From Escherichia coli (lineage in GTDB: Bacteria > Pseudomonadota > Gammaproteobacteria > Enterobacterales > Enterobacteriaceae): a DNA stretch of 64,000 bases. Location: NCBI RefSeq assembly GCF_965641715.1, contig NZ_OZ282453.1, one strand, 5' to 3'. This document shows positions 43,820-52,645 of this stretch, one piece after another; within the stretch, counting starts at the first letter, position 1; every line of letters begins with the position of its first letter. A model generated the notes under the pieces. The model saw only the letters and a list, made by a program, of their open reading frames with translations, searched no databases and had not been told where the DNA came from. A program made the position numbers and the translations under genes.

Positions 43820-45571
43820 ATGATTCAGGACGCTTTTGTGCGCCAGCGTGCGCGACAACTTTACTGGCAGGGTTATCCGCCCGCTGAAATATCACGTCTG
43901 ATGGGAATAAACCCGAACACGATTTATGCGTGGAAAAAACGCGACCAGTGGGATGAAACGCCACCCGTGCAGCGTGTCACGCAGTCCATCGATGCGCGCC
44001 TCATCCAGCTTACTGAAAAACAGAATAAAACAGGCGGTGACTTTAAGGAAATAGACCTGCTGACCCGGCAGCTTAAAAAACTGCATGATGGCCAGCCGGA
44101 TGCGACGGCCACAGGAAAGAAAGGCCGGGCGAAAAAGCTTAAAAATCATTTCACGCCGGAACAGATTGCCGCACTGCGGGAAAAAATCATCAGCAGGCTG
44201 GAGTGGCATCAGCGGGGCTGGTTTGACTCCCTGACCCTTTGCAGGGAAGCCGGGATACGTAACAGGATGATCCTGAAATCCCGACAGATTGGGGCGACCT
44301 GGTATTTTGCACAGGAAGCACTGCTGATGGCGCTGCGTGACGATGTGGCGCAACCTTACCAGCGTAACCAGATTTTTTTGTCTGCGTCGCGTCGTCAGGC
44401 GTTCCAGTTTAAAAGCATTATTCAGAAGGCTGCATCTGAAGTTGATGTGGAGCTGAAAGGGGGCGATAAAATCATCCTCTCCAACGGCGCAGAGCTGCAT
44501 TTTCTCGGCACTTCTGCTGCGACGGCACAGTCCTACACAGGCAATTTTTATTTTGATGAATTTTTCTGGGTCAGTCGCTTTGCTGAACTGCGCAAGGTGG
44601 CTGGCGCTATGGCAACCCTCAGCGGGCTGCGACGCACCTACTTCTCCACGCCATCAACCGAAACGCACGAGGCATACGTCTACTGGAACGGCGACCGCTG
44701 GAACGAGAAAAAGGCCGCGCATAAACGCCAGCGTTTTTCTGTGGACTGGAAAACGCTGCATAACGGGCTTATCTGCCCCGACCGGACGTGGCGGCAAATT
44801 GTCACGCTGGAAGATGTGGTTAATCACGGCTGGAAACACACCGATATTGATGAAATTCGTGATGAAAACACCGAAGACGAGTTCCGCAATCTCTATATGT
44901 GTGAGTTTGTCCGCGAAGGGGAATCGGCATTTAACCTGAATATCCTGATTGGCTGCGGTGTTGACGGATACGACGACTGGAAAGACTGGAAACCTTTTGC
45001 TCCCCGCCCGATGGGGAATCGTCCGGTATGGATTGGGTATGACGCAAACGGCAGCAGTGGAAACGGCGACAGTGGCGCGGTGTCCGTGGTGGTTCCTCCG
45101 GCTGTTCCTGGTGGCCGTTTTCGAACGGTGGAGACGCGACGCGTTCAGGGGCTGGAGTTTGAAGAACAGGCCAGAGTCATTGAAGAGTTCACGTGTCGCT
45201 ACAACGTGGAACACATCGGCATTGATGTGACGGGCGGGAACGGGGAGGCTGTTTATCAGATAGTGAAACGGTTTTTCCCTGCCGCTATTCCGTACACCTT
45301 CACGCTGTCATCAAAACGGTCGCTGGTACTGAAAATGCTGCAAATAATGCGTGCCGGGCGGTGGGAATACGATCGCGCCGAACGCGAGCTGGTCGCGGCC
45401 TTTAACGCCGTGCGTAAGGTGAAAACACCGGGCGGCTTTATCACTTACGAAACGGACCGCGCGAGGGGGATCAGCCACGGCGACCTTGCGTGGGCAACCA
45501 TGCTTGCTGTCATTAACGAACCAATTGGCGGCGAAGGAGAAAACGAGCGTTTCACGGTTATGGAGTTCTGA
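43820..45571 (+). CDS. P: Terminase large (ATPase) subunit gpP
   Basis: 583 aa; terminase ATPase and nuclease architecture; adjacent to the portal gene. Confidence 0.88.
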   Translation: MIQDAFVRQRARQLYWQGYPPAEISRLMGINPNTIYAWKKRDQWDETPPVQRVTQSIDARLIQLTEKQNKTGGDFKEIDLLTRQLKKLHDGQPDATATGKKGRAKKLKNHFTPEQIAALREKIISRLEWHQRGWFDSLTLCREAGIRNRMILKSRQIGATWYFAQEALLMALRDDVAQPYQRNQIFLSASRRQAFQFKSIIQKAASEVDVELKGGDKIILSNGAELHFLGTSAATAQSYTGNFYFDEFFWVSRFAELRKVAGAMATLSGLRRTYFSTPSTETHEAYVYWNGDRWNEKKAAHKRQRFSVDWKTLHNGLICPDRTWRQIVTLEDVVNHGWKHTDIDEIRDENTEDEFRNLYMCEFVREGESAFNLNILIGCGVDGYDDWKDWKPFAPRPMGNRPVWIGYDANGSSGNGDSGAVSVVVPPAVPGGRFRTVETRRVQGLEFEEQARVIEEFTCRYNVEHIGIDVTGGNGEAVYQIVKRFFPAAIPYTFTLSSKRSLVLKMLQIMRAGRWEYDRAERELVAAFNAVRKVKTPGGFITYETDRARGISHGDLAWATMLAVINEPIGGEGENERFTVMEF

Positions 45572-46617
45572 TGAGCAGAAAAAATAAAAAAGTGCGCATG
45601 AGTTCACGCATTGATCTCGCTGATGCGCTCAGGAAAGAATCGTCGCTCAGTGCATTCACATTTGATGGTCCTTACCGCCTGACCGGGCATGACCTGCTGG
45701 ACAATATGTACTGTGCTGATAACGGGCGGTGGTATGAAACCCCGGTGGACTGGTACGGTCTGGCAAGAGCCGCCCGGCAAACGTCCTGGCATCAGTCTGC
45801 GCTTTACTTTAAGCGCAATGTATTGCTCGGTTGCTACATCCCGCACCCGCTGCTTTCCCGGCAGGATTTCTCGGCGCTGGCGCTGGACTGGTTTGTGTTC
45901 GGTAACGCATTCCTTGAGCTTCGGAGCAATATGCTCGGCGAACCACTTAAATTACGGCACGCACTGGCGAAATACATGCGACGCGGAAGCGATCTTGAAT
46001 CATGGTGGTATGTGCAGGATGGCAAGGACGCGTTTCAGTTTCGCCCTGGCAAAGTGTGCCACCTGATGAATCCGGACATTAACCAGGAAATTTACGGCAT
46101 GCCGGAATATCTTGGCGCATTACTCTCGGCCAGCCTGTCTCATTCGGCGGACATGTTCAGAAAACTGTACTACGACAATGGATCCCACGCCGGGTGCATC
46201 ATCTACATCGGTGCAGCGCAGGTAAACCGCGAAAGCATGGACTCCCTGAAGGAAACGCTACAGGGTGCGCGTGGTGGTGGTGCATTTAAAAACGTGCTCA
46301 TTCACGCGCCCAACGGGGGCAAAGAAGGTGTGCAAATTTTGCCGTTCCAGCAGATCACCGCAAAGGATGAGTTCATGAATGTTAAGGCGGCATCCCGTGA
46401 TGATGTGCTGGCTGCGCACCGCGTTCCGCCGCAACTGATGGGGGCGATGCCGGGCGAAAAAAGTGCGTTTGGTGATGTGGAGAAGGCAGCGCGGGTTTAC
46501 GCAATTAACGAGCTGATGCCCGTCATGGAGGCCATGAAGCATATCAATGACTGGCTTGGCGAAGAGGTGATCCGCTTTAACCCTTACGCACTGCTGGACA
46601 CCCAGCCCACATCCTGA
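45571..46617 (+). CDS. Q: Portal protein gpQ
   Basis: 348 aa, start overlaps the gpP stop; P2 Q size and position. Confidence 0.88.
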   Translation: MSRKNKKVRMSSRIDLADALRKESSLSAFTFDGPYRLTGHDLLDNMYCADNGRWYETPVDWYGLARAARQTSWHQSALYFKRNVLLGCYIPHPLLSRQDFSALALDWFVFGNAFLELRSNMLGEPLKLRHALAKYMRRGSDLESWWYVQDGKDAFQFRPGKVCHLMNPDINQEIYGMPEYLGALLSASLSHSADMFRKLYYDNGSHAGCIIYIGAAQVNRESMDSLKETLQGARGGGAFKNVLIHAPNGGKEGVQILPFQQITAKDEFMNVKAASRDDVLAAHRVPPQLMGAMPGEKSAFGDVEKAARVYAINELMPVMEAMKHINDWLGEEVIRFNPYALLDTQPTS

Positions 46618-47141
46618 CGCGCTTCGCTTGTCTGCTGCTTCGCCGGGGCATAAAAAATTTATGCCCCGACTCTCCAGCTCCTGTATCAATCAGATAATTT
46701 CACGACGTCTTCCAGCTTATCGCCATCATCGACGGTCAGGCTCTTACGCAATCCCACCGCGTTGACTGCATGTTCTTGCCGCCTCAGTGCGATTTTGACG
46801 GCCTTATCTGTCACCCCATCAAATCAAAAGCCCTCACGCCTTTTTCACGCTCAGTGTGAGAAATACAGCCATTCTGTTGTGTCGCTGCGACATCGTTCAG
46901 GGAATGCTATTTACCCCCTGAAACGCGGGCTGTTCCCCCGTCACCTGCGCGCAGAAAAAACGCGTTTTTTTGTGCACGCACGGATCCTTGACGGATCCAG
47001 TCGCCACGCGGGCCGGAAGGGTAAAAAGTTGTTCAAAAAAATTGTGCAAATTTGTGCACTATTGTGCGGTGTATAAAATGAAAATATGGCGGTGTTATTA
47101 CTGCCCAACAAGCCGTTATACTTACGTTATGGGCGTGCATA
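46618..47141. other. Non-coding region expected to contain the cos site, plus the promoter of the downstream toxin-antitoxin pair
   Basis: Placed by synteny (P2 cos lies next to Q). Contains a Q-distal hairpin ggggcataaaaaatttatgcccc and three TTGTGC direct repeats at about 47040..47068. Exact cos ends not identified. Confidence 0.4.
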
Positions 47142-47498
47142 ATGGAAATGAATATGAAAACTGTAACTGATGATGAATTTCGTGAGAACCTGAGTGAAAT
47201 TCTGGATTACCTTTCTTCCGGTGGCAGTGTCGTTATCACGGCGCAGGGAGGGAAGGATGTTGTTCTTGCTGGTTCTGATCTTAGTCCTGAAATACGGGCT
47301 GTCCTTGGCAAAACCAAAAAACTGCGGGATCAAATAAACAAAATGAAGCAACCACTCTTAATAAATGCAGTGAGAGATCTGGAAAAACGTCATCCAGCTC
47401 TTGTCGCACAGAGAAAAAAAGGATTGTCTTTTGAAGATGCAATGAAGCGTACAAGAGAAAAACATGCGGATATCATTAAAAAGCTTGAGGATAACTGA
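47142..47498 (+). CDS. Phd/YefM-family antitoxin
   Basis: N-terminal T..EFRENLSEILDYL...VVIT..GKDVVL resembles the Phd/YefM fold; stop overlaps the toxin start (ATAACTGATGG). Confidence 0.7.
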   Translation: MEMNMKTVTDDEFRENLSEILDYLSSGGSVVITAQGGKDVVLAGSDLSPEIRAVLGKTKKLRDQINKMKQPLLINAVRDLEKRHPALVAQRKKGLSFEDAMKRTREKHADIIKKLEDN

Positions 47499-47905
47499 TG
47501 GACATAGTGTTTTTGTCAAAAGAACAAGTAGAACGTATCCATGCTGAAACTTTACCCCAGAGCGGAAATGCCAATGACGGGCTACTTGAAGGTGCTTTAA
47601 ATCGCGTCAGGACACTACACTACTATGAAGGGGTTGATGATATTCATGCTCTGGCTGCTATGTATTTGATTGGTATAGCCAAGGCTCATGCCTTTCATGA
47701 TGGGAATAAACGCACAGCTTTTCAGGCTGCATCAATATTTTTAATGATGAACTCTTCCGAACTTTCAAACTCCCTGCTGCTGGTTAAATTAACGGTGTTT
47801 TCAGCAATGGGGATAGCTACCCTTGAGGAAGTTACCTTTGCTTTGAAATTGCTGTCTGATTATGGCAATGAATTAATCAGCGACTACGAAGAAGATTATA
47901 TTTAA
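47498..47905 (+). CDS. Doc-family toxin (Fic fold)
   Basis: HAFHDGNKRTAF matches the Doc/Fic core motif HxFx(D/N)GNKR; 135 aa. Confidence 0.8.
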   Translation: MDIVFLSKEQVERIHAETLPQSGNANDGLLEGALNRVRTLHYYEGVDDIHALAAMYLIGIAKAHAFHDGNKRTAFQAASIFLMMNSSELSNSLLLVKLTVFSAMGIATLEEVTFALKLLSDYGNELISDYEEDYI

Positions 47906-48071
47906 TGCTGGCATACTCTGTCGTGTTAAGACAACAGCCTTTGCGGAGACAGGGCAGGGTGCCAGACTTGCCCGCAGCGCGTCTGACATGAGCAGTTATT
48001 CATCTTTTTTATTGTTTTTCTCCATGCAGGGCGACAGTGCGCCCCGATAAAATTAAAAGCCGTCAAATTCG

Positions 48072-48407
48072 TCATTCATGCGTTTTTTCTTCATGGTCTG
48101 TCACTTCTCTCCTGATAACTTCATTGCACAAATCAACGCACTCATTGCAGATGTAAACAGACGGTCCGGCAATCACCTTTGTGACTTCGTACTGGGATTT
48201 ATTGCAGAAGCTGCAATAAATCGTCTCCTCACCTGAAGTCCATGTTTTGCTGGTTTCGCCAGACATCAGTTGTTTGAGGTCTTTTTCACGACGAAGAACT
48301 ATCTGGCCACATTCAGCTATTTTTTGGATGTTGACATTTTCTTCTTTCGCCAGCGCTTCCATCCGCTCAATCAGTCGCTGCGCTTTTTCTCTGTCAATGC
48401 GTTGCAT
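48072..48407 (-). CDS. Stand-alone protein carrying a ClpX-type N-terminal zinc-binding domain
   Basis: C-terminal half [38 protein letters not shown] is near-identical in pattern to the ClpX C4 zinc-binding domain; N-terminal 60 aa helical; no AAA+ module. Confidence 0.7.
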
Positions 48408-48470: not shown

Positions 48471-48782
48471 TTATTCGGGAAATAACGCCCGGATATTTCC
48501 GGCCATCTGACTGGTTATCTGTGCGGTTGATACTGGCTGTGACGCGGGGCGTTCTGTCCTGGTTTGTGTCACTGATAACGCTTCATCATCAGCCCATGCA
48601 GCCAGTCGGTAAGCCTCTGCCGGATTCATTTTCAGAAGTGCCAGCCCGGCCAGAAAAGCCACGCGTTGGCCGCTTTTGCGCGCTTCTGGTGTAAGGCTGT
48701 CCAGCCAGGCGCATGCTTCACCTTCGTTCTTGACGGCGGCGGGCTTCAGATAGAAACTTATCCGTCTGGTTGGAGTCGTCAT
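48471..48782 (-). CDS. ParR/StbB-like partition adaptor
   Basis: ~103 aa from MTTPTRRISFYLKP...EACAWLDSL...RVAFLAGLALL, parallel to plasmid R1 ParR; directly downstream of the parM-like gene. Confidence 0.65.
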   Translation of the reverse strand: MTTPTRRISFYLKPAAVKNEGEACAWLDSLTPEARKSGQRVAFLAGLALLKMNPAEAYRLAAWADDEALSVTQTRTERPASQPVSTAQITSQMAGNIRALFPE

Positions 48783-48786
48783 TGGT

Positions 48787-49746
48787 TTACTCCTTGTCCA
48801 TTGCGTACAGCCCATTAACCAGAGCAAACTGTGGCACCCCGTCCGCGATGAAAGTCGCATTAACTCCGCAGGCTTCGCGGATAGCGGGTGCCACAATCTC
48901 CGCCCCGCCACCGACAACCATCACCCGCCCGTAACCCGAAAAAACCGCCAGCGCGCGGATCACGCGTTGTTTCAGTGTTTCTTCCTTTTCACGAATAACC
49001 GCCATCAGGCTGGCGTAATGCGCGTCATTGTGGATGTGCTGGCGCAACCAGGCTTCATCATGGCGATGTTCGATAATGGTATTGGCGATGTGGTGACTGA
49101 TACGCATACCGTTAGTGGCCATCACCGACAGTACGGCATCGGCCATCAGGGAAACGCCTACGTGTGGATCGCAAAACACCTGGCTGATACCTGCCAGTTG
49201 CCCCTGAACCTTTGCCACATCCAGTGTGGTTCCGCCCAAATCCACAATCAGCAGGGATTCAAGCGGACTCATGTCAGCCAGTGCTTTAAAGCCAGCCGGA
49301 ATGGATTCAGGCATAACCCGTACGTTACGGATAGTGAATGTTTCGCCGTTCTGGTACTCCACCGGGCGCATAACGTTCGCTTTTTTGCGGCTGATGTTGG
49401 CCATGTCCGGCTGTGCGTTTGTGTCGAAATACTCGCTCAATGGCAGGGTGACAACCACATCCACCTCCTGTGGCGTGATGCCTGATTTGACCAGCGCGTG
49501 ATGAATGGCAATGACATTCACATCGCTGTACTGGTATTGCGTGTCGGTCGTCTGGACAAAGCGATCGCTGACCGGATCAAAACCATAGCGCACGCCATCA
49601 AGCATGTAGTTCGCGGGCTGCGAGCCACCGAACGGCGCAGACCATTCCGACTTGAAGCTGTTCGGGCTGATGGCGTTGCGGCGTTCGCCGTTCTCAGTCC
49701 ATGCCAGCTTGATGTTGGTGGAGCCGTCGTCGATACAAATTTTCAT
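48787..49746 (-). CDS. ParM/StbA-like actin-family partition ATPase
   Basis: MKICIDDGSTNIKLAW...ISPNSFK...YSDVNVIAIHHAL...VMVVGGGAE...LVNGLYAM follows plasmid R1 ParM through all actin-fold motifs; 319 aa. Confidence 0.85.
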   Translation of the reverse strand: MKICIDDGSTNIKLAWTENGERRNAISPNSFKSEWSAPFGGSQPANYMLDGVRYGFDPVSDRFVQTTDTQYQYSDVNVIAIHHALVKSGITPQEVDVVVTLPLSEYFDTNAQPDMANISRKKANVMRPVEYQNGETFTIRNVRVMPESIPAGFKALADMSPLESLLIVDLGGTTLDVAKVQGQLAGISQVFCDPHVGVSLMADAVLSVMATNGMRISHHIANTIIEHRHDEAWLRQHIHNDAHYASLMAVIREKEETLKQRVIRALAVFSGYGRVMVVGGGAEIVAPAIREACGVNATFIADGVPQFALVNGLYAMDKE

Positions 49747-49769: not shown

Positions 49770-49895
49770 ATTAATCGTTTACAGGATTTTTAAATCCCGC
49801 TTTTGCCTGTTTTGTGCGCGCTTCATATATCGCGGCACGTTTTTTGCTCATTTATGGGATTTGTGAATCCCGTTTCTGTCTGTTTTTTGTTTCCA
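49770..49895. repeat. Two palindrome-containing ~33-bp direct repeats upstream of the parM-like gene
   Basis: ggatttttaaatcccgcttttgcctgttttgtg and ggatttgtgaatcccgtttctgtctgttttttgt, about 73 bp apart; the second lies in the 3' end of gene A. Possible centromere or operator. Confidence 0.35.
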
Positions 49896-52645
49896 CTGGT
49901 CAGGCCACCCCGCAGCAGGTCTGCTTTGCGGCTGGCGCGTTCAGTGGTTTCACTGATTCTCTGTGCGTGCTCTGCGTCGCGGATGGCGCGCAGCATGTCA
50001 GAAAGCACGGTAACGGGTGTTTTCATGGTGTTCTGGTCCTGCTGAAGTGTGGATGCCAGGCGTGCGGCGGCTTCAGGGTCTGATGCCCCCAGCTGTGCCA
50101 GATAGCTGGCGACCGGGTTATGGCGGATCTCCGTGCTGCTTACGCCATGATTACGGCTCAGGCGCTGCCAGAGCTGCGTGATTCGGCTGTCCGGGCGGGT
50201 ATCCGGTTTGCGTACAATTTCAAATCCCTGCGGTGCAATGATGCTGCCGTCAACGTACAGACTGCCGCCCCGTAACAGGTGCTGCATCTGTTGTTCACCG
50301 ATATGCAGGCCGAGAGATTCAGCAGACTCCCGCCATTCTTTAGCGAGTAATTCGTGGTTATCAGGCAAAGGCCGTGGCTGTTTGCGGCTCTGTGTCCAGC
50401 TCTGCATTTCATCACTGCTGTTTTTTGCCTGTTTGTCACGAAGCGAACGCATCAGCGCCCGGCGTTCGTGCCGTTTCAGTGAGCGCATCCATTCGTTCAC
50501 GTCAACGCCGTCAGGAAGCTGCGGCCACGGTGCTGGCCGTTCTTTCGACTGTTCTGTCCCGCTGTTGCCTGTTTCCTGTACACGGGGACAGTTATTGCCA
50601 CGAGTCCAAGGGGCGGCAGGGCCGCCCTGAAGGTCAAAACCATTTTCGCGGGCGCTGTCTTCCGTTTCCGGTTTACGTCTTACCAGTTTCCAGTTATCCG
50701 GATGCGTGCACACACGGGAGGATTCCCCGATGAGTGGTGACCAGATCCCGTAAATCTGTACGCTCTGTTCGCCGTAATCATTCAGCTCATCTGCGAGGTC
50801 GTAGGCGGTGCGAATCAGGTAGTCTTTGCGTGGAACAAGTACGCCGCCCTGTTTTTCAATGTAGGTGGCAAAACACCCGGCATCGGCGGCAGCGAGTACC
50901 GCATCCATTGCGTCATCTTTCAGTCGTTGCGGGCCTTCCGGGTTGCGTGCCATCTGGCTGGCAAGGCGGCGCAGTTCACGCCACACCTGACGGGAGGGGA
51001 TGCCAAAGAACTGGAACTGGCGGACCCGATGAAGGCGCGCCCAGCCGATGGCGCGCTCCACACTCTCGGCCATTGATTTTCCGGTTTCGTGGTCAACGCG
51101 TGGCTTGCCCGTTTTCGGGTCGATGCCATCCACGGCGCGGCTGTCCAGGTTCTTTCCGATGTAGGTCGCGATATAGCTGGTTGGTGTGCCTTTTGAGCCG
51201 TCGACATACTCCGCCTTAAAGCGCGGAGTAATATCATTGCCCAGCTCGTGGCGGTCTTCCTGAATGGCAATATCGCGGGTGATGGCCACGATGCTGTCGA
51301 TTTCTTCCGGATGAGCAAAGACCATCATATGCCAGTGCACGGTGCCGTCATGGTGAGGCTCCACCGTGCGGATGCCATACCAGCGAAGACCGTCGCGGTT
51401 CAGTTTTTTGCGGACCGCCGCAAAAAACGTGTTAACCAGGTAATCGCTGGAGTCGCGCATGGTGGCCCCGTTCCATTTGGGATTCGGATGACCGTTCTCT
51501 GTTGTGGCGTGGTATTTTGACGGGCAGGTGACAGTCAGAAACACCGCTTTGTCGCCACGGGCTTCGGCCAGAAGTTCCAGCCCCTTCATGGTGGCCATCA
51601 TTTCTGCCTTACGGTGAACCGGGTTACTTACTCCCGCGTAATACACCGTCTCGAGATCAATCGTGAACCCGTCTTCATTTTCCAGCATGAAACTTTTCAG
51701 GAAATCGCGTGTTTTCTCGCGCTGTGCGCGAAACTCGCTTAACGCGTCCTGGCTCAGATAGGGCGATGTTTTTCTGGAAACCAGACAGGCGGCGCGGAGT
51801 TGTTCTTCTCTCCACTCGCAACGTAACAGCCACAGTTTGCGTTTCCACCATTCTGCACAGGTCAGGCGAAGGATTGCGCCCGGCAGCAGCTCCGTGTCCG
51901 GTTCGTTCCTCTGGTCTTTGTCTGTTGTCAGTGCGTCATAATGTGGAGGCATGGCGTGCAGGTGTAACGCCATGCGGGCCAGCATCTGATACGCCTTCAG
52001 CGTTACATCCATGGTCAGTTCGCCATCGGTCGCGCCAAAGCCATCGCAGAGTTTTTCGAAGGTGCTGCTGAACATCGCCGCCGTCATGGTGGCCAGTGTC
52101 TGTATCTGGTGTTTGTTGAGCTGCGGCAGGTAAAGCAAATCGTCCAGGCGTTCGCGTCCGGCAAGGGAGCGATAACCCTGTGTCAGCCAGCGGTGATCGG
52201 TGCGCTCCAGACGTTCGAATATTTTGCGCAGGTTTCCGCGCGCGTAGCGTTCAGCCTGCCAGCTCTTTTTGCCTTTCTGACGATCGGCTTCCTGTTTTTT
52301 GCGCAGGAAGGAGAGGTGGCGAATAAGCGGATCGCGCAGATAGGACGGCAGCAGGCGCAGCGAGGCCATGGCTTCATCCACCGCGCCGCGTGCCTGTTTT
52401 CTGGCATCTCCTGCCAGTGTGATGGTTTTGTCCTGTTTTTCCTGTGCGTCCAGGCTTTTATTAATCAGGTTGCCCAGCGGCGTTGCGGAGAACGCCGCAT
52501 CAGCCATTTCCTGGCGGTGCTCGTTCTCTACCCGGTAGGCATCCAGCCAGGAGGAAAGCGCGGATTCAGGAGCGGGGATCCCCGTTCCTTCACGCCCCAC
52601 TGCGTGGCGCGGTTGTTGCCAGTCCCTGATGTACTCTGCCGTCAT
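49823..52645 (-). CDS. A: Replication initiation endonuclease (P2 gpA family)
   Basis: 940 aa; large early protein with a tyrosine-containing segment (TSYIATYIGKN) of the rolling-circle initiator type; last gene of the early operon. Confidence 0.75.
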   Translation of the reverse strand: MTAEYIRDWQQPRHAVGREGTGIPAPESALSSWLDAYRVENEHRQEMADAAFSATPLGNLINKSLDAQEKQDKTITLAGDARKQARGAVDEAMASLRLLPSYLRDPLIRHLSFLRKKQEADRQKGKKSWQAERYARGNLRKIFERLERTDHRWLTQGYRSLAGRERLDDLLYLPQLNKHQIQTLATMTAAMFSSTFEKLCDGFGATDGELTMDVTLKAYQMLARMALHLHAMPPHYDALTTDKDQRNEPDTELLPGAILRLTCAEWWKRKLWLLRCEWREEQLRAACLVSRKTSPYLSQDALSEFRAQREKTRDFLKSFMLENEDGFTIDLETVYYAGVSNPVHRKAEMMATMKGLELLAEARGDKAVFLTVTCPSKYHATTENGHPNPKWNGATMRDSSDYLVNTFFAAVRKKLNRDGLRWYGIRTVEPHHDGTVHWHMMVFAHPEEIDSIVAITRDIAIQEDRHELGNDITPRFKAEYVDGSKGTPTSYIATYIGKNLDSRAVDGIDPKTGKPRVDHETGKSMAESVERAIGWARLHRVRQFQFFGIPSRQVWRELRRLASQMARNPEGPQRLKDDAMDAVLAAADAGCFATYIEKQGGVLVPRKDYLIRTAYDLADELNDYGEQSVQIYGIWSPLIGESSRVCTHPDNWKLVRRKPETEDSARENGFDLQGGPAAPWTRGNNCPRVQETGNSGTEQSKERPAPWPQLPDGVDVNEWMRSLKRHERRALMRSLRDKQAKNSSDEMQSWTQSRKQPRPLPDNHELLAKEWRESAESLGLHIGEQQMQHLLRGGSLYVDGSIIAPQGFEIVRKPDTRPDSRITQLWQRLSRNHGVSSTEIRHNPVASYLAQLGASDPEAAARLASTLQQDQNTMKTPVTVLSDMLRAIRDAEHAQRISETTERASRKADLLRGGLTSGNKKQTETGFTNPINEQKTCRDI

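Follow-up and report, generated by a model that had tools for sequence, protein, structure and literature searches.

A P88-like prophage of Escherichia coli carries, as accessory cargo of its cos-proximal hotspot, two adjacent genes that very probably form a functional type II toxin-antitoxin operon of the Phd/Doc family. This reading rests on sequence comparisons and a structural model. The analysed stretch comprises 64,000 nucleotides of contig NZ_OZ282453.1 (assembly GCF_965641715.1) and is called the window throughout; the features discussed are collected in Table 1. The original prediction had proposed a Phd/Doc-family pair at this place, and the assignment was borne out by the family scores, by the alignment of the toxin to P1 Doc and by the match of the antitoxin to the Phd fold. 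For comparison, we used 11 divergent loci that carry the pair, the window included. This set was obtained by contig look-ups with exact proteins; scans with an antitoxin profile, genome-wide and viral, gave 2 and 6 loci, respectively.

Table 1. Positions in the window of the toxin-antitoxin pair, its upstream region and the neighbouring prophage genes.
Feature	Position	Strand	Remarks
Terminase gpP	43820-45571	+	
Portal gpQ	45571-46617	+	followed by a conserved non-coding stretch with cos, then by variable cargo
cos junction of the P88-like prophage	47000-47025	.	approximate; deduced from the start and end of a single linear phage record
Three TTGTGC repeats	47042-47067	+	starts at 47042, 47052 and 47062; exact 10-bp spacing
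Conserved upstream block of the pair	47094-47130	+	candidate promoter/operator, from conservation and a relaxed hexamer search
GGAA, Shine-Dalgarno-like element	47144-47147	+	6 nt before ATG 47154
Antitoxin gene	47154-47498	+	114 aa plus stop; RefSeq WP_001561011
Doc toxin gene	47498-47905	+	135 aa plus stop; RefSeq WP_001561009
ClpX-type zinc-finger protein	48072-48407	-	
ParR-like protein	48471-48785	-	RefSeq CDS shorter than the 148-aa open reading frame
ParM	48787-49746	-	
Replication endonuclease gpA	49823-52645	-	

The Doc/Fic motif that had been noted in the second open reading frame is present there, in the segment KAHAFHDGNKRTAF, as H-A-F-H-D-G-N-K-R, which is of the HxFxDGNKR type. 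The protein scored above the cut-off of the Pfam Fic/Doc model PF02661 (E-value 3.5e-11, 44.2 bits, cut-off 24) and of the subfamily model TIGR01550 DOC_P1 (53.6 bits, cut-off 38.65), and it matched the Doc-like toxins of PHROG 577 with an E-value of 2.9e-26. In the alignment to the structure of P1 Doc (3k33, E-value 6e-13), the H, F, D, N, K and R of the motif were all aligned. HAFHDGNKR pairs residue for residue with HIFNDANKR of P1 and did not vary in the 11 loci. Motif, family models and the alignment to P1 Doc identify the predicted toxin as a Doc-type protein of the Fic fold.

The longest open reading frame for the antitoxin (positions 47142-47498, plus strand) has 118 codons before the stop. 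The true length of the protein is most likely 114 rather than 118 residues, because the N-terminus MKTVTD showed no variation among any of the homologues, because the ATG further upstream, at 47142, lacks conservation (L016 and L022 have CTG or ACG there), because a Shine-Dalgarno-like element lies at the appropriate place (kept as GGAA or GGAT in 10 of the 11 loci), and because RefSeq also annotates the start at 47154.

A Phd/YefM-like N-terminus had been predicted for this protein, and the claim held at the level of the fold, with sequence scores just below the cut-offs. The Pfam model PhdYeFM_antitox (PF02604) matched residues 5-42 only and reached 29.2 bits (gathering score 29.8), and TIGR01552 gave 16.6 bits (cut-off 20.8). 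Several relatives from the antitoxin subfamily scored above the PF02604 threshold (31-37 bits), and the antitoxin itself matched PHROG 375, annotated as Phd-like antitoxin. We built an AF2 model from 16 homologues. It is of moderate confidence (pLDDT about 80 for the N-domain and 72 overall) and has a strand-helix-strand-strand order across residues 1-39, with helices thereafter. When the model was submitted to Foldseek, the top 40 matches were all Phd, YefM and related antitoxins, and the N-domain of P1 Phd (4zlx_A) fitted it with an rmsd of 1.4 A over 42 columns (target-normalised TM-score 0.81). As modelled, the N-domain is the Phd/YefM DNA-binding and dimerisation fold.

The overlap of stop and start codons that had been reported for the two genes was confirmed. 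The open reading frames share a single base, 47498, within ACTGATGG, where TGATG at 47496-47500 provides both the stop codon TGA and the start codon ATG. An overlap of the form T[GA]ATG, together with a toxin of 135 residues, was found in all 11 divergent loci. Both genes are under purifying selection, with dN/dS values (rough, since dS is saturated) of 0.035 for Doc and 0.14 for the whole antitoxin; by segment, the antitoxin values were 0.15 for the N-domain, 0.24 for the linker and 0.04 for the C-terminus. The conserved overlap, the constant toxin length and the purifying selection therefore place the pair well beyond chance. As judged from these comparisons, it is an intact Phd/Doc-family type II toxin-antitoxin operon with the antitoxin first and with co-oriented, translationally coupled genes. 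Downstream of Doc, a clear intrinsic terminator was found in L012 and L015 and none in the window. Folding of the 176-nt region between Doc and the ClpX zinc-finger gene gave a stability no better than that of shuffled sequences (z 0.11), and an Rfam scan of positions 46600-48100 returned no RNA family match.

The antitoxin can be divided into the Phd/YefM-fold N-domain (residues 1-44), a variable helical linker (residues 45-90) and a conserved C-terminal motif, LSFEDAMKRTREKHADIIKKLEDN (residues 91-114). Across the 11 loci, identity to the window sequence was 55-95% for the N-domain, 28-74% for the linker and 83-96% for the last 24 residues, compared with 74-98% for Doc; the last 24 residues are thus almost as conserved as the toxin. 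An exhaustive profile search with the antitoxin found a small family, with 61 clusters at an E-value of 1e-3 or better among 1.84 billion representatives. Members of this subfamily range from 90 to 214 residues and have in common the Phd N-domain, a linker of variable length and the C-terminal motif, which also occurs behind a non-Phd, Ead/Ea22-like N-terminus (P0159). Relatives of Doc with 54-66% identity are found in P22-like and lambdoid enterobacterial prophages, and the antitoxins paired with related Docs end in SFEDAxKRTKxKHAxIIKxLED[KN], with unrelated middles. In these alignments, the C-terminal motif tracks the Doc clade whatever the length of the linker. The variable middle and the recurring C-terminal motif therefore suggest a tail made of a variable linker and a conserved module, and this module is probably the toxin-binding part. 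The tail had originally been called unusually long. It is long relative to the 73 residues of P1 Phd, but with 114 residues the antitoxin is ordinary for its subfamily. AlphaFold was also run on an antitoxin-(G4S)6-Doc fusion with a paired alignment of 11 rows; the C-terminal helix and Doc were poorly modelled and the mean pLDDT was 52, so this model says nothing about the interface between antitoxin and Doc.

The predicted location in a phage hotspot was upheld and could be specified. Positions 43.8-56.8 kb of the window belong to a P88-type (Xuanwuvirus) prophage of the P2 family, and the pair is found in its cos-proximal region, between the portal gene gpQ and gpA, where antitoxin and Doc are the first cargo genes after cos. 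The flanks of the prophage are 92-97% identical to phage P88 and its relatives; the intervening cargo is unmatched. The locus between gpQ and gpA of P2-like phages, directly beside cos, is a known hotspot of anti-phage systems (Rousset et al. 2022, PMC9122126), and it has also been described by Vassallo et al. (PMC9519451). Both the pair and the type of locus are already known. RefSeq names the proteins 'type II toxin-antitoxin system Phd/YefM family antitoxin' (WP_001561011) and 'death-on-curing family toxin' (WP_001561009), and the arrangement PhdYeFM + StbA + Plasmid_stab_B + zf-C4_ClpX + Fic, with WP_001561011, is listed in Table S5 of PMC9122126. The terms 'Fic' and 'PhdYeFM' are both absent from the table of assayed systems in Rousset et al. 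2022 (PMC9122126).

Each of the 11 divergent homologues is located in a P2-like prophage, in the interval from gpQ/cos to gpA, and a decayed twelfth copy occupies the same slot in a Symbiopectobacterium genome. The hosts are E. coli, Citrobacter, Serratia and Edwardsiella, the other loci being metagenome contigs. In 10 of the 11 loci the pair is the first gene after cos and has the same orientation; at L018/L019 it is inverted and faces the other way. The other cargo (DNA methyltransferases, HicAB and others) varies by locus. A ClpX zinc-finger gene is adjacent to the pair in three of the 11 loci, and P88 and PhiR44_2 have this gene but lack the pair; we rejected it as an obligate third component.

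With regard to the biological role, the reading that we prefer, and the least certain one that we offer, is that the pair may protect the lysogen through abortive infection or superinfection exclusion, by analogy with much other cargo of the hotspot. We lean towards lysogen protection because the pair and its relatives were located exclusively in the hotspot and in moron positions. Our literature searches on Phd/Doc in phage defence found reviews only, and among them no Phd/Doc pair shown to defend. In PADLOC, the Fic domain of Doc gave weak local partial matches to the candidate systems PDC-S23 and PDC-M59B (E-values 7e-6 to 6e-4), the antitoxin had no match, and the pair corresponded to no catalogued defence-system model. 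The defence reading has two close competitors, prophage addiction and purely selfish persistence.

The archetypal case of prophage addiction is P1 phd/doc (PMC7180214). By this precedent, the window pair might act in post-segregational killing: cells that lose the prophage, or an extrachromosomal form of it kept by ParM/ParR, would die, and the element would thereby be stabilised. We regard such a role as possible though doubtful. In the window, a ParR/ParM partition cassette is located 0.6 kb from the pair. Rousset et al. (PMC9122126) note a partition system at the cos-proximal hotspot in about one in four P2-like phages and suggest that such cassettes may enable these prophages to be maintained as plasmids. 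However, the 21 near-identical copies of the pair in complete E. coli genomes were all chromosomal and none was plasmid-borne, the prophage has an integrase and adjoins btuC, and ParMR is found near the pair in only two of the 11 loci (the window and L018). Addiction is weakened because the prophage is integrated in the chromosome and ParMR is usually absent.

Alternatively, the pair could persist in the recombination-prone cos-proximal hotspot because its loss is difficult, without benefiting phage or host. Its rarity would fit selfish cargo of this kind (among 5426 complete E. coli genomes, 19 have the 866-bp region of the pair, at 99.8-100% identity), as would the small size of the antitoxin family and the change of neighbours from locus to locus. 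It is nevertheless rather unlikely, given the strong purifying selection on the toxin in hosts from Escherichia to Serratia and Edwardsiella, and given the fixed position directly after cos, which suggests that expression or function there is selected for.

A more specific version of the defence reading would make the Doc clade of the P2 hotspot a dedicated abortive-infection module. Here the fast-evolving linker of the antitoxin would be a sensing or target surface, which senses proteins of invading phages or host proteases or is itself targeted by them. In the E. coli lineage, the adjacent phage-encoded ClpX zinc-binding domain could interfere with the recognition of the antitoxin by ClpXP and thereby possibly tune the threshold. 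We mention this elaboration, suggested by position and conservation patterns, as a speculation to which we give little credence.

The mechanism of the pair can be sketched by analogy with P1. Free Doc would phosphorylate EF-Tu and thereby arrest translation. The C-terminal helix of the antitoxin would fold onto Doc and block its active site, while the dimeric N-domain would repress the operon's own promoter, with the conserved upstream block and its GTTAT and TATACT elements (see below) as candidate sites. The antitoxin would be the labile partner, so that a halt in its synthesis would set Doc free. The enzymatic part of this scheme could be wrong: the toxin might be an AMP-transferase of the Fic type, or a kinase of a phage protein, a topoisomerase or some other target. 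The identity to P1 Doc is only about 30%, and the targets of Fic/Doc-fold toxins are diverse (PMC7180214). Such a departure from P1 is improbable, however. P1 Doc is an EF-Tu kinase, and it is the lysine of GN-K-R that makes it a kinase rather than an AMP-transferase; this residue, K73, a glycine in Fic, inverts the orientation of ATP (PMC7180214). The window protein has the Doc-specific lysine, and of the canonical Fic motif HxFx(D/E)GNGRxxR it lacks both the second glycine and the distal arginine; it also scored above the cut-off of the DOC_P1 subfamily model.

The original prediction had also drawn attention to three TTGTGC direct repeats in the promoter region as candidate autoregulatory operators. 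The repeats are present as described, and a fourth copy starts at 46970, but the operator role was not supported. The three repeats lie 87-112 bp upstream of the start codon of the antitoxin, within conserved phage backbone by cos. An alignment of positions 46900-47160 with four P88-like phages that carry different cargo and no pair (P88, PhiR44_2, vB_EcoM-569R5 and Shae_phiSM) was near-invariant through the third repeat, with the repeats themselves invariant, and could not be continued from about 47068. The linear record of P88_4B11 (LR595891.1) starts at the equivalent of about 47023 in the window and ends with the repeats, which appear there as GCACAA from the opposite strand; they thus occupy the final 20-50 bp at the right end of that genome, beside cos. 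On these comparisons, they are cos-flanking phage backbone and not specific to the pair. It is therefore highly improbable that the antitoxin autoregulates the operon through them, even though they are spaced one helical turn apart upstream of the operon and accompany the pair in 10 of the 11 loci, since they are just as constant in phages with other cargo, form the extreme right end of a linear genome record, do not precede the inverted copy in L018, where the proximal conserved block is retained, and lie at least 50 bp upstream of the best -10 candidate. We also rejected the repeats as a ParR centromere (parC), because they are present in pair loci without ParMR. The cos flanks of P2 differ in sequence from those of this prophage, so the P2 literature on cos is not directly transferable.

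The region closer to the antitoxin gene behaves differently from the repeats in that a proximal block of about 60 bp is kept in all 11 loci, including the inverted L018. It contains GTGTTATTAyTGC, followed about 21 bp further on by CGTTATACTTAC, which includes TATACT, then by GGAA and the start codon. In the window, GTTAT boxes start at 47094, 47115 and 47126, the -10-like hexamer TATACT (47117-47122) is separated by a 16-nt spacer from a weak -35-like TTATTA (47095-47100), and an imperfect palindrome, CGTTATACTTACG, covers 47114-47126. A strict consensus promoter scan called no plus-strand promoter upstream of the pair. From its conservation and hexamers, we regard the block as the candidate for the pair's own promoter and operator.

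The identification of the pair is correct but ordinary, as this is a known kind of system, and it carries little weight as a discovery. The value of the analysis lies elsewhere. It removes a false lead, as the TTGTGC repeats are cos-flanking backbone, and it delineates a small Phd/Doc subfamily of prophages in which the antitoxin is modular and of which one clade is confined to the P2 hotspot. The pair is also a candidate for asking whether Doc-type toxins contribute to phage defence.

Among known systems, the closest comparison is P1 Phd/Doc (PDB 3k33, 3kh2 and 4zlx). Both are bicistronic operons of temperate phages with the antitoxin gene first. Both toxins have the Doc-type Fic fold with an HxFx(D/N)(A/G)NKR motif, although identity between them is only about 30% across 97 aligned residues. 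Both antitoxins have, in the case of the window protein according to the model, the DNA-binding fold of Phd in the N-domain, and in both a C-terminal segment is the presumed neutralising part. They differ in length (114 versus 73 residues), the window protein having a variable helical linker of about 45 residues, and the C-terminal motif in the window, SFEDAMKRTREKHAxIIKxLEDN, is unrelated to that of P1 Phd. The carriers also differ, as the window pair resides in an integrated prophage of the P2 family and the P1 pair in a plasmid prophage.

Closer in sequence are the pairs of a P22-like prophage of Klebsiella (L025) and a lambdoid prophage of Serratia (L028). They share with the window a Doc of 135-136 residues (57-63% identical), overlapping stop and start codons, and a Phd-fold antitoxin that ends in KHAxIIKxLED[KN]. 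Their antitoxins differ from that of the window in the length of the linker, with totals of 109 and 90 residues, and their moron sites are different ones, near the tape-measure gene or, in L028, between the Q antiterminator and the holin.

By position, finally, the pair resembles the other cargo of the P2 hotspot. The old and tin genes, retrons and PARIS-like systems occupy the same slot between gpQ/cos and gpA, and like old-tin of P2 the pair is transcribed away from cos. For these hotspot systems, anti-phage activity has been demonstrated (Rousset et al. 2022, PMC9122126).

The conserved C-terminal motif of the antitoxin, FEEAMKRTKEKHAxIIxKLGxN, is not confined to proteins of the Phd type. 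It also ends P0159 and P0157, two proteins from the profile search with the antitoxin family that have no Phd domain, and one of them carries an Ead/Ea22-like N-terminus instead. Because the motif terminates proteins without a Phd domain, its distribution suggests a putative Doc-neutralising module that is shuffled among different N-terminal domains.

Copies of the Phd/Doc pair in other prophages differ in their state and company. In the Serratia P2-like prophage L021 (5875-6515), HicA/HicB directly follows the pair, as a second toxin-antitoxin pair in the hotspot. In Candidatus Symbiopectobacterium endolongispinus (L013), frameshifts break both the Phd/Doc copy and the flanking portal gene, leaving a fragmented portal, a truncated antitoxin and a Doc without its N-terminus, a pattern that fits decay of the prophage in the reduced genome of this symbiont.

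Features of the window near the Phd/Doc pair
Feature	Position	Strand	Remark
ACGGATCC repeats (n=2)	46980 and 46991		cos-flanking region
ClpX-ZBD-like phage protein, 111 aa	48072-48407	-	C-terminal ~45 residues match E. coli ClpX zinc-binding domain
ParM (StbA) + ParR-like (Plasmid_stab_B) partition cassette	48471-49746	-	inside integrated P2-family prophage

The ClpX-ZBD-like gene is convergent with Doc in the window and in two other loci with a homologous pair (L014 and L020), and it is also present in P88 and PhiR44_2, without the pair. Its product matches PHROG 6797 and consists of a helical N-terminus of ~55 aa ahead of the zinc-binding domain, which is ~78% identical to that of E. coli ClpX (1ovx; E 2e-19). 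The protein has the appearance of a ClpX zinc-binding domain captured by the phage, and it could interfere as a decoy with, or modulate, the way ClpX recognises its substrates and adaptors. According to Rousset Table S5 (PMC9122126), the ClpX zinc-finger gene often occurs together with ParMR. In the window, only 76 bp separate the gpA stop from the parM start.

The cos-flanking architecture (46965-47067 in the window) is also conserved, with TTTTTTTGTGCAC on the left and CAAAAAAATTGTGCAAATTTGTGCACTATTGTGC on the right side of the presumed cos junction. The repeats in this region, like the (T/G)TGCAT repeats of P2, may be binding sites for terminase or a host factor. In P2, the (T/G)TGCAT repeats number three, are spaced 10-11 bp apart and closely precede the old promoter, at a distance of 120-155 bp from the right end of the genome.
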